Shown here one piece after another: positions 2,278-2,705 of a DNA stretch of 8,743 nucleotides. The notes beneath the pieces were generated by a model, which saw only the letters and a list, made by a program, of their open reading frames with translations, searched no databases and was not told the DNA's origin. Each line of letters starts with the position of its first letter. Position 1 is the first letter of the stretch. Source of the stretch: a virus (lineage: Duplodnaviria > Heunggongvirae > Uroviricota > Caudoviricetes); IMG/VR virus record IMGVR_UViG_2526164651_000002; one strand, 5' to 3'. A program made the position numbers and the translations under genes.

Positions 2278-2352
2278 TGGAGCGGGCAGCGGGAATCGAA
2301 CCCGCATCATCAGCTTGGAAGGCTGAGGTAATAGCCATTATACGATGCCCGC
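2278..2352 (-). tRNA. tRNA-Gly (anticodon UCC)
   Basis: Reverse complement folds as a cloverleaf: GCGGGCA acceptor, anticodon loop CUUCCAA, T-arm GCGGG-TTCGATT-CCCGC, encoded CCA. By recollection essentially identical to E. coli glyT. Confidence 0.9.
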
Positions 2353-2355
2353 ATA

Positions 2356-2431
2356 TGGTGCCGACTACCGGAATCGAACTGGTGACCTACTGATTACAAG
2401 TCAGTTGCTCTGCCTGCTGAGCTAAGTCGGC
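2356..2431 (-). tRNA. tRNA-Thr (anticodon UGU)
   Basis: Reverse complement GCCGACTTAGCTCAGCAGGCAGAGCAACTGACTTGTAATCAGTAGGTCACCAGTTCGATTCCGGTAGTCGGCACCA. Anticodon loop CUUGUAA, encoded CCA. thrU-like with a few D-arm differences. Confidence 0.88.
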
Positions 2432-2433
2432 GC

Positions 2434-2510
2434 TGGCCCACCACCGAGGACTCGAACCTCGCACCGTCAACTTAGAAGGTTGATGCTCTATCCGGATGAG
2501 CTAGTGGTGG
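2434..2510 (-). tRNA. tRNA-Arg (anticodon UCU), decodes AGA
   Basis: Reverse complement CCACCACTAGCTCATCCGGATAGAGCATCAACCTTCTAAGTTGACGGTGCGAGGTTCGAGTCCTCGGTGGTGGGCCA. 7-bp acceptor, D-stem GCTC/GAGC, anticodon stem TCAAC/GTTGA with loop CUUCUAA, T-arm CGAGG-TTCGAGT-CCTCG. The 5' C start is unusual; exact ends need tRNAscan. Confidence 0.75.
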
Positions 2511-2512
2511 TT

Positions 2513-2588
2513 GGTGGCCCTTGCTGGACTTGAACCAGCGACCTGGCGATTATGAGTCGCTCGCTCTGACCAACTGAGCTAAAGGGCC
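2513..2588 (-). tRNA. tRNA with CAU anticodon, ileX-like (probably lysidine-modified tRNA-Ile2 reading AUA; elongator Met not excluded)
   Basis: Reverse complement GGCCCTTTAGCTCAGTTGGTCAGAGCGAGCGACTCATAATCGCCAGGTCGCTGGTTCAAGTCCAGCAAGGGCCACCA. Anticodon loop CUCAUAA. Acceptor and anticodon arms closely resemble E. coli ileX as recalled. Confidence 0.8.
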
Positions 2589-2597
2589 GGAGGCAGA

Positions 2598-2626
2598 ATA
2601 ATAACCATATGTCATCACATCTGCAA
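2598..2626 (-). promoter_or_regulatory. Candidate sigma70 promoter for the tRNA array (-35 TTGCAG, 17-bp spacer, -10 TATTAT)
   Basis: Minus strand reads TTGCAG-atgtgatgacatatggt-TATTAT-tctgcctcc, then the first tRNA begins at 2588. Sequence inspection only. Confidence 0.4.
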
Positions 2627-2676
2627 ACTCATCTGACCACCAGCACGTTTAACGTCCTGTGCCGTTTTTCAGGTAT

Positions 2677-2705
2677 AAAAAAACCCGCATAAAGCGGGCT
2701 CTTTC
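2677..2705 (-). terminator. Intrinsic terminator downstream of the putative Q gene (candidate tR')
   Basis: Minus strand reads gaaagag-CCCGC-TTTAT-GCGGG-TTTTTTT, a GC stem with a 7-T tract, ~75 nt after the Q-like stop codon. Confidence 0.7.

Follow-up and report, generated by a model that had tools for sequence, protein, structure and literature searches.

Why should a prophage carry four tRNA genes between its late antiterminator gene and its lysis genes, and where were these genes obtained? The question is raised by a stretch of 8,743 nucleotides of caudoviral DNA (IMG/VR record IMGVR_UViG_2526164651_000002; the whole stretch is called the window below), in which genes for an Ile2-type tRNA, tRNA-Arg, tRNA-Thr and tRNA-Gly form a tight array (slots 1 to 4, in the order of transcription). 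This four-tRNA block is a real but ordinary feature of lambda-like prophages in Escherichia coli and Shigella. With regard to its role, we consider codon supplementation likely, at moderate confidence.

ARAGORN predicted four tRNA genes in the window and none besides. All of them are located on the minus strand, a point on which the preliminary description of this DNA was silent; nearly all of its structural statements were confirmed, and its interpretation proved largely right. The genes scored between 56.4 and 70.5 bits with the tRNA model of Rfam, which has a gathering score of 29 bits, and their coordinates and anticodons agreed with those first read from the letters (Table 1). The terminal CCA, visible in the minus-strand sequence, is encoded in each of the four genes, as had been noted. 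Read 5' to 3' on the minus strand, the spacers comprise 1 nt (A), 2 nt (GC) and 3 nt (TAT). The tight spacing initially reported is therefore correct, whereas the range of 2-3 nt given for it is not. The label "ultra-compact" was an overstatement: the lysT operon of strain K-12 also has spacers of 2 nt (valT-lysW) and 3 nt (valZ-lysY), so the compactness of the array is not exceptional.

The gene with the CAU anticodon is 96% identical (74/77) to ileZ of Stx2 (Shiga toxin 2) phages and 90-92% identical to the host genes ileX (69/77) and ileY (71/77). It keeps C4:G69 and C5:G68, as in ileX and ileY; these pairs are major identity elements for the E. coli TilS (PMC11947777). An identical gene in an E. 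coli prophage is called tRNA-Ile by PGAP. These properties point to an Ile2-type tRNA, that is, a presumptive lysidine-dependent AUA decoder, and bear out the early comparison with ileX. An elongator or initiator Met tRNA was considered for the CAU gene and rejected on account of the TilS pairs, the likeness to ileX and ileY and the PGAP assignment. The Arg(UCU) gene shares 83% identity with argN (UCG) of Stx2 phages and 84-86% with Lys(UUU) versions found in sister arrays, but just 70% with the host gene argU and 60% with argO of Stx phages. Its cloverleaf is preserved by compensatory changes, for example G3:C70 to A3:U70. The gene has a GGA D-loop (A20), C35, U36 and G73, which we take to be the arginine identity elements for E. 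coli ArgRS.

The second half of the array is close to host genes. The tRNA-Gly is identical to K-12 glyT over its full length (75/75), and the tRNA-Thr matches thrU at 74 of 76 positions; the two differences, U16C and U20C, both lie in the D-loop, and the anticodon arms do not differ. On the chromosome, thrU is followed after 8 nt by tyrU and, after another 116 nt, by glyT, which places thrU and glyT 209 nt apart. The TAT spacer of the array corresponds to the first base after thrU (T) and the two bases before glyT (AT). The Thr-Gly half was therefore captured from the tufB operon of the host, with tyrU precisely deleted, and slots 1 and 2 are related to ileZ and argN of Stx phages. Such a modular array of mixed origin confirms the initial impression that near-identical host copies (Gly, Thr) and a divergent Arg gene had been pieced together from different sources. 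A mere fragment of a chromosomal operon with the same spacing was also considered and is ruled out, because the chromosome has tyrU between the two genes and a distance of 209 nt instead of 3 nt, and because the array resides in a prophage.

The array is situated between the Q-like late antiterminator gene with its terminator and the lysis cassette, all on the same strand. The order Q-like gene, terminator, tRNAs, holin, endolysin and Rz is shared by an intact prophage of E. coli FDAARGOS_944, to part of which positions 663-6074 of the window are 99.8% identical. This relative is integrated between ybhA and pgl and carries the type III secretion system effector gene ipaH at its right end (L015 46761-48587). 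The Pfam assignments of the genes, the fold of the hairpin and the conserved order thus uphold the placement given in the preliminary description, as well as the intrinsic terminator that it had seen behind Q: the GC-rich hairpin is followed by a U7 run, and the 192-nt segment that contains it (2780-2589) folds with a z-score of -3.95. The stem of this terminator is conserved, with an altered loop, in a Citrobacter braakii prophage and an Escherichia ruysiae prophage, which also share the Q gene and the stretch between the end of this gene and the terminator. Within this stretch, a block TTG(C/A)TT-17-TGcTTCAAT is invariant in the window and in both other prophages, while its flanks diverge; we infer that the block represents the late promoter pR' with an extended -10 element. 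Homology to the C. braakii and E. ruysiae prophages ends just past the terminator, and their tRNA content is limited to Thr-Gly.

A candidate promoter had been noticed directly in front of the first tRNA gene. It ends 9 nt before this gene and, as a match to the consensus, is not significant. The motif TTGCA[AG]-N17-TAT(T/C)(A/T)T was present, however, in all of the 25 most frequent among 30 distinct upstream sequences from 61 loci. It was positioned 9 nt from the first tRNA (8 nt in one sequence) and occurred in at least six unrelated upstream contexts, between which the spacer sequence and everything further upstream differ. Identical hexamers, spacing and distance in unrelated surroundings are good comparative evidence that the cassette brings its own, portable promoter of the sigma-70 type. 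A consensus scan of promoters and terminators was uninformative by itself: it returned three promoter-like sites against 1.9 expected and missed both the Q-linked terminator and the putative pR'.

The cassette is widespread. The 311-nt array was found at a coverage of at least 80% in 603 of 5,426 complete E. coli genomes, where it is annotated as Ile, Arg or Lys, Thr and Gly; a copy with at least 99% identity is present in 10 complete E. coli genomes. Three copies of the junction of Thr, 3 nt and Gly are present in one genome of S. flexneri; E. coli, E. ruysiae, C. braakii and Enterobacter hormaechei have the junction as well, and so do at least 120 contigs of IMG/VR. It was also encountered on a 423-nt contig (L026) with a very low coverage of 0.67 from the myxobacterium Corallococcus exercitus (NZ_RAVW01000911.1), most likely an assembly contamination. 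Among 130 loci, 55 have Thr-Gly alone, 36 have CAU-Lys(UUU)-Thr-Gly and 18 have CAU-Arg(UCU)-Thr-Gly, the remainder being rarer forms. The cassette is found behind differing, unrelated Q genes and before differing lysis cassettes; in phage phi467, the Thr-Gly module is placed behind stxAB. By this distribution, the array is a mobile module that keeps to a conserved site.

The slot-2 scaffold, 83-86% identical to the Arg gene of the window, exists with the anticodons UCU (window), UCG (argN of Stx phages) or UUU (L002 4095-4171, L014 2578-2654, L003 3095-3171 and L004 3095-3170, plus loci from IMG/VR, carry this scaffold). The UUU form is the commonest, with 36 intact four-tRNA arrays in addition to partial ones, and deviates by C33 where U33 is otherwise universal, by a mismatch of A52 with C64 and by U73. 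Two other slot-2 forms look degenerate. In a few arrays, including L011 2657-2732 (E. coli 720632) and L095, a UUU anticodon resides on a thrU-derived scaffold (G35U and A26G) with the annotation tRNA-Lys; the cassette has thus come to a UUU anticodon in a second way, independent of the first. For tRNA-Gly, at least 38 loci (e.g. L024) have an allele in which C6:G67 is replaced by U6:A67, and two have the intermediate U6:G67. Together with those in the slot-2 stems, these compensatory changes indicate selection for working, foldable tRNAs. AGA was slightly more frequent in loci of the Arg type (7.8 versus 7.0 per 1000 codons, p = 0.055), and AAA was so in loci of the Lys type (39.2 versus 34.6, p = 0.02). 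As these effects are small and stem from loci that are not independent of one another, they permit no conclusion on whether the slot-2 anticodon follows codon usage.

The codons cognate to the array are among those that phage genes use in excess. In a comparison of 29 late genes of the intact relative (7,158 codons) with 42 K-12 genes (14,790 codons), AGG (3.9-fold), ATA (3.7-fold), AGA (3.2-fold), TCA (2.3-fold), GGA (2.3-fold) and ACA (2.2-fold) were the six codons with the highest enrichment. All four cognate codons, ATA, AGA, ACA and GGA, are thus within the top six of 61 (p = 2.9e-5), and they are within the top five of the 14 A-ending sense codons (p = 0.005). In the K-12 sample, ATA, ACA and GGA are the rarest codons of their own families, and AGA is the second rarest. 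The 45 array-bearing loci contain per 1000 codons about 10 ATA, 7-8 AGA, 13 ACA and 13-14 GGA; the nine phage open reading frames of the window contain 12.8, 10.3, 12.0 and 14.5, respectively. The endolysin gene, for which at least four ATA and two AGA codons had been counted, has exactly these numbers among its 165 codons, besides three ACA and two GGA. The skew is stronger in ipaH of the intact prophage than in late genes, with 19.7 AGA, 9.9 AGG and 11.5 ATA per 1000. Codon supply is hence the best-supported role of the array, yet the support is correlative.

The following sequence of events is proposed. A basal transcript would start from the sigma-70-type promoter of the cassette, 2-3 nt upstream of the first tRNA. 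After induction, Q-modified RNA polymerase coming from pR' would pass the terminator and add late, high-level transcription. RNase P would cut each 5' end, and 3' exonucleases would trim the trailers of 1-3 nt to the encoded CCA. Processing by RNase P and 3' exonucleases is known for tightly spaced host tRNA operons, and the presence of spacers of 2-3 nt in such operons makes the spacing of the array compatible with normal processing. The Ile2 tRNA would read AUA after lysidine formation, Arg(UCU) would read AGA and AGG, Thr(UGU) would read ACA, and Gly(UCC) would read GGA and GGG; all four would be decoders of the minor type. The additional tRNAs would raise the supply for codons used two to four times more in phage and acquired genes than in the host, for each of which the E. 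coli tRNA may be encoded by a single gene copy or be scarce. The sequences establish the genes, their order and homologies, the conservation of the promoter and the codon bias; transcription, processing and charging of the cassette tRNAs, and a benefit from them, are deduced.

Several observations weigh against codon supply. TCA is enriched to an equal degree, and the array has no tRNA for it. Enrichment of A-ending codons is a general trait of acquired DNA that is richer in AT. Phage lambda is not known to possess tRNA genes and manages all the same, so that such a cassette is dispensable. Sister cassettes have exchanged Arg(UCU) for Lys(UUU), although AAA is not enriched in phage genes (34.8 versus 33.9 per 1000); codon supply cannot, therefore, explain the whole family. 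Finally, the structural late genes are missing from the window. The compensation for late genes proposed at first is thus supported statistically in intact relatives, but does not apply to this locus today. Given that the prophage of the window is a truncated remnant, any present benefit would accrue to the host and not to phage late gene expression.

The extent of this truncation is evident from the surroundings of the array (Table 1). The window contains two inverted copies of an element of the IS3 family of insertion sequences (IS), whose ends TGAAGTGGTCAAC... point inward. On either side, the homology with the intact prophage extends precisely to the IS end: on one side the IS terminates at position 662 within Rz, and the homology begins at 663. 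The prophage of the window is thus an IS-truncated remnant of 5.4 kb that has lost the structural late genes for head and tail. The fragment and the inverted IS copies form an arrangement that resembles a composite transposon. Beyond the IS bracket, IS1 and a fragment of a phage integrase gene are found (7413-8110; 7991-8743). None of the loci compared is identical to the window; the phage part is closest to E. coli FDAARGOS_944, and the IS copies are closest to those of S. flexneri. The remnant thus probably resides in an IS-rich genome of the Shigella or enteroinvasive E. coli type.

Table 1 Features of the 8,743-nt window in the order of their positions
Feature	Positions	Strand	Evidence and remarks
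IS3-family element, inverted copies	1-662 and 6075-7322	+ and -	flank the prophage fragment 663-6074
Rz, truncated by the IS3-family element	660-902	-	Pfam Phage_lysis, profile positions 1-48 of 126 only
Endolysin, RrrD-type lysozyme, 165 codons	887-1384	-	Pfam Phage_lysozyme, 150.6 bits
Holin, phage 21 S type	1384-1599	-	Pfam Phage_holin_2_1, 116 bits; class II holin in the identical prophage
Terminator-like hairpin with T run	2000-2019	-	consensus scan and fold
Long hairpin, 31-nt inverted repeat	2075-2163		arms 2075-2105 and 2133-2163, 84% complementary; main structure in the fold of 1990-2277
GCACTG, short hairpin, GGG element	2227-2249	-	some 29 nt downstream of tRNA-Gly
tRNA-Gly, anticodon UCC, identical to host glyT	2352-2278	-	ARAGORN; Rfam 64.9 bits
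tRNA-Thr, anticodon UGU, copy of host thrU with U16C and U20C	2431-2356	-	ARAGORN; Rfam 69.8 bits
tRNA-Arg, anticodon UCU, argN scaffold of Stx phages	2510-2434	-	ARAGORN; Rfam 56.4 bits
tRNA-Ile2 type, anticodon CAU, ileZ family	2588-2512	-	ARAGORN; Rfam 70.5 bits
Predicted sigma-70-type promoter of the cassette	2598-2626	-	TTGCAG (2626-2621), 17 nt, TATTAT (2603-2598)
Intrinsic terminator after Q (tR' equivalent)	2679-2706	-	hairpin AGCCCGC-UUUAU-GCGGGUU and U run (U7)
Putative late promoter pR'	2760-2788	-	-35 TTGCTT (2788-2783), extended -10 TGcTTCAAT (2768-2760)
Q-like late antiterminator, 184 aa	2778-3332	-	Pfam DUF1133, 356.7 bits; Phage_antitermQ, 29.4 bits (cut-off 26)

From upstream to downstream on the minus strand, the fragment encodes QueH, hok/sok, a 95-aa open reading frame, DUF1367, YbcO/DUF1364, the Q-like DUF1133 protein, the tRNAs, holin, lysozyme and Rz. 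The Q-like protein has a weak match to the structure 6P18 of phage 21 Q (E = 4e-4), and its gene is annotated as DUF1133 family protein in the identical E. coli prophage. A full-length gene for the epoxyqueuosine reductase QueH (5177-5863, minus strand; Pfam 220 bits) lies in the nin region, 2.6 kb upstream of the array, and is also called QueH in the identical prophage. With QueH, the phage brings an enzyme of tRNA modification; queuosine is carried by none of the four tRNAs in the array. A hok/sok type I toxin-antitoxin system (4794-5119, minus strand) matched the sok family of Rfam with 117 bits (gathering score 59) and is annotated as hokD in the identical prophage.

Downstream of the array, a gene-free spacer of 680 nt extends from tRNA-Gly to the holin gene and has no annotation in the identical prophage. 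No terminator was detected directly after tRNA-Gly; in the lysogen, transcription of the tRNAs may end at a terminator-like hairpin 258 nt downstream. An element of CACTG, an AT-rich hairpin and GGG follows 26-32 nt past tRNA-Gly in 69 of 126 loci. Its stems covary (ACACA/TGTGT, GCGTA/TACGT, CACAT/ATGTG) and its flanks are otherwise unrelated; no Rfam family matched the element. A permissive Rfam search of positions 1600-2800 yielded only the four tRNAs and sub-threshold matches, namely antisense tRNA look-alikes, miRNA-precursor models on the long hairpin, isrK (19.9 bits) and a Trp leader (23 bits). Arrays that consist of Thr-Gly only do not share the upstream module of the four-tRNA arrays: immediately in front of Thr they have a long hairpin, GGTTCYGAGGGG ... 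CCYYKARGAACC (e.g. in L017 upstream of 4345), and some of these arrays have TTGAAA-16-TAATAT about 60 nt upstream.

Apart from codon supply, the preliminary description had suggested a buffer against anticodon nucleases. In this explanation, the cassette replaces or tops up host tRNAs that are destroyed by defence nucleases of competing elements, notably the Toprim enzymes AriB of PARIS and P2 OLD, and its Thr(UGU) copy is itself partly resistant to cleavage. The tRNA-Thr(UGU) encoded by thrU is the primary lethal target of P2 OLD in P2-lambda interference, the enzyme cutting its anticodon stem at paired CNG motifs (PMC12445682). Resistant Thr tRNAs of phages, including the tRNA-Thr(UGU) of phage 21, protect against P2 OLD; a change of the CNG motif alone is not protective, and resistance is attributed by the authors to CNG changes combined with a shortened stem (PMC12445682). 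With respect to AriB, the exchange of U16 for C in tRNA-Lys significantly impairs cleavage (PMC12409363).

The Thr gene of the window has the UGU anticodon that is a prime target of both AriB and P2 OLD, and one of the only two differences from thrU is U16C. A BLAST search retrieved 98.7% identity (two mismatches) over the 154-nt span of Thr and Gly in nearly all of 5,425 E. coli genomes, which is consistent with a chromosomal thrU that keeps U16 and U20 in nearly all E. coli, as judged from the overall identity. In 130 phage-borne Thr copies, C16 (39 copies) and C20 (34 copies) are by far the commonest changes, and positions 16 and 20 occur in all four combinations and on several array backgrounds. 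The effect of U16C is known from tRNA-Lys, however, and not from tRNA-Thr. Positions 16 and 20 are, moreover, among the least constrained in tRNAs, where drift would strike first, so that the pattern of C16 and C20 is suggestive but equally consistent with drift. Further points weigh against counter-defence. The Thr anticodon arm is that of thrU and includes the AriB site U36AAUC|A41 and both CNG motifs, whereas the Lys, Thr and Asn tRNAs of phage T5 are substituted at or around the AriB cleavage site. The Gly gene equals the host gene and would add dosage only. Arg(UCU), Ile2 and Gly(UCC) are not among the targets reported in the two studies (PMC12445682; PMC12409363). Evasion of OLD by the window Thr is ruled out by the unchanged anticodon arm and by the finding that overexpressed host thrU gave little or no protection from OLD (PMC12445682). 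For the array of the window, the buffer against nucleases is hence a weak, partial case, carried by U16C and opposed by the anticodon arm and the host-identical Gly, and we consider this explanation unlikely.

The case for counter-defence is stronger at the level of the family. The anticodons UCU, UCG and UUU occur on one scaffold, and UUU occurs on the thrU scaffold as well. Four rare Thr haplotypes (L032, L037, L054 and L140) have changes of G42 to C or U and of U43 to C, which break the 3' CNG motif and shorten the anticodon stem, the very combination reported for resistance to OLD. In the Lys(UUU) tRNA of sister arrays, G39-U40-U41 replaces the AriB site U39-C40|A41; arrays of the Lys type nevertheless retain a Thr identical to thrU. 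A cassette family derived from thrU and glyT may accordingly have been remodelled in an arms race with Toprim nucleases such as AriB and OLD. U16C, with or without U20C, would then constitute a partial AriB-escape allele of Thr, the rarer alleles would break the CNG motif, and the UUU forms would provide a cleavage-resistant lysine decoder. We regard this scenario as doubtful. If it were true, a common prophage cassette of E. coli and Shigella would be a counter-defence module made largely from stolen host tRNA genes, and not a device for codon supply.

A benefit for the lysogen was considered as a further explanation. By lysogenic conversion, the constitutive promoter would provide the host with extra minor tRNAs that improve the translation of acquired AT-rich genes, in Shigella and enteroinvasive E. 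coli (EIEC) for instance those of the ipaH effectors and of the virulence plasmid. The predicted promoter of the cassette is independent of Q, and the codons of ipaH in the intact relative are strongly skewed to AGA, AGG and ATA. The genomes of S. flexneri and of E. coli ECMA0423 and FDAARGOS_944 each contain the cassette several times. This explanation would also account for the survival of the array in an IS-bracketed remnant without head and tail genes. The remnant, however, keeps the lysis genes, Q and hok/sok as well, so that retention may reflect recent decay, and the cassette is common in commensal and extraintestinal pathogenic E. coli without ipaH. Lysogenic conversion therefore appears improbable to us as the reason for the array. 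Least plausible is a functionless passenger in a decaying prophage: the IS elements on both sides, the cut Rz and, beyond, an IS1 and the integrase fragment would fit such a relic, but the four genes are intact and identical to those of the intact prophage, the promoter hexamers are intact and, unlike in the degenerate slot-2 forms elsewhere, there are no disabling mutations.

With codon supply as the favoured role, the array can be compared with known systems. The ileZ-argN-argO cluster of Stx2 phages occupies the same site, after Q and the terminator and before the stx or lysis genes. Besides the relationship of ileZ and argN to slots 1 and 2, the two clusters share the spacer of 1 nt between these genes. 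In the window, on the other hand, slot 2 has UCU instead of UCG, argO is absent, Thr-Gly follows and no toxin genes lie downstream. Phage SfI carries Asn and Thr tRNAs downstream of Q, and one or both are found in Sf6, ST64T, PS3 and P21; a bias for ACA was reported for SfI (PMC3636060). In the sequence record of SfI, a similarity of its Asn and Thr tRNAs to phage 21 is noted. SfI has this Asn(GUU)-Thr(UGU) pair directly past the Q-linked terminator in a lambdoid late operon, and a Thr tRNA with UGU is common to SfI and the window. The tRNA-Thr of SfI is highly diverged, with U28:A42, an anticodon stem of 4 bp and no CNG motifs, whereas that of the window is a near-copy of thrU. In comparison to the host operon thrU-tyrU-glyT-thrT-tufB, the window lacks tyrU and about 206 nt between thrU and glyT, as well as thrT and tufB. 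The Thr-Gly module, unlike the host operon, resides in prophage late operons, either alone or behind slots 1 and 2. Virulent T4-like and T5-like phages likewise cluster their tRNA genes at tight spacing, and codon supply as well as nuclease evasion has been proposed for these genes. Their arrays are far larger (26 tRNA genes in Sf14), in contrast to the four genes, two of them host copies, in a temperate phage. By its tRNA genes, its position between Q and lysis genes downstream of tR' and its relationship to ileZ and argN, the array of the window belongs to the tRNA cassettes of lambdoid late operons. It also shares with morons the property of an own promoter, here a predicted motif conserved in at least six contexts.

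As tRNA genes after Q have already been described in lambdoid phages, and this particular layout is annotated in hundreds of genomes, the value of the array lies in what it reveals about the construction of such elements. The cassette is a clean and widespread natural example of how a temperate phage builds a tRNA cassette, with one half from the lineage of Stx phages, another half captured from the host and a portable promoter. The variation of the family, comprising UCU, UCG and UUU on one scaffold as well as alleles of the D-loop and the anticodon stem at positions reported to be read by PARIS and OLD, makes it well suited to the debate on codon supply versus evasion of defence, in a host for which purified nucleases and genetic tools are available. 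Additional Ile2 and Arg(UCU) tRNAs from a constitutive source could also influence how AT-rich virulence genes are expressed in Shigella and EIEC.

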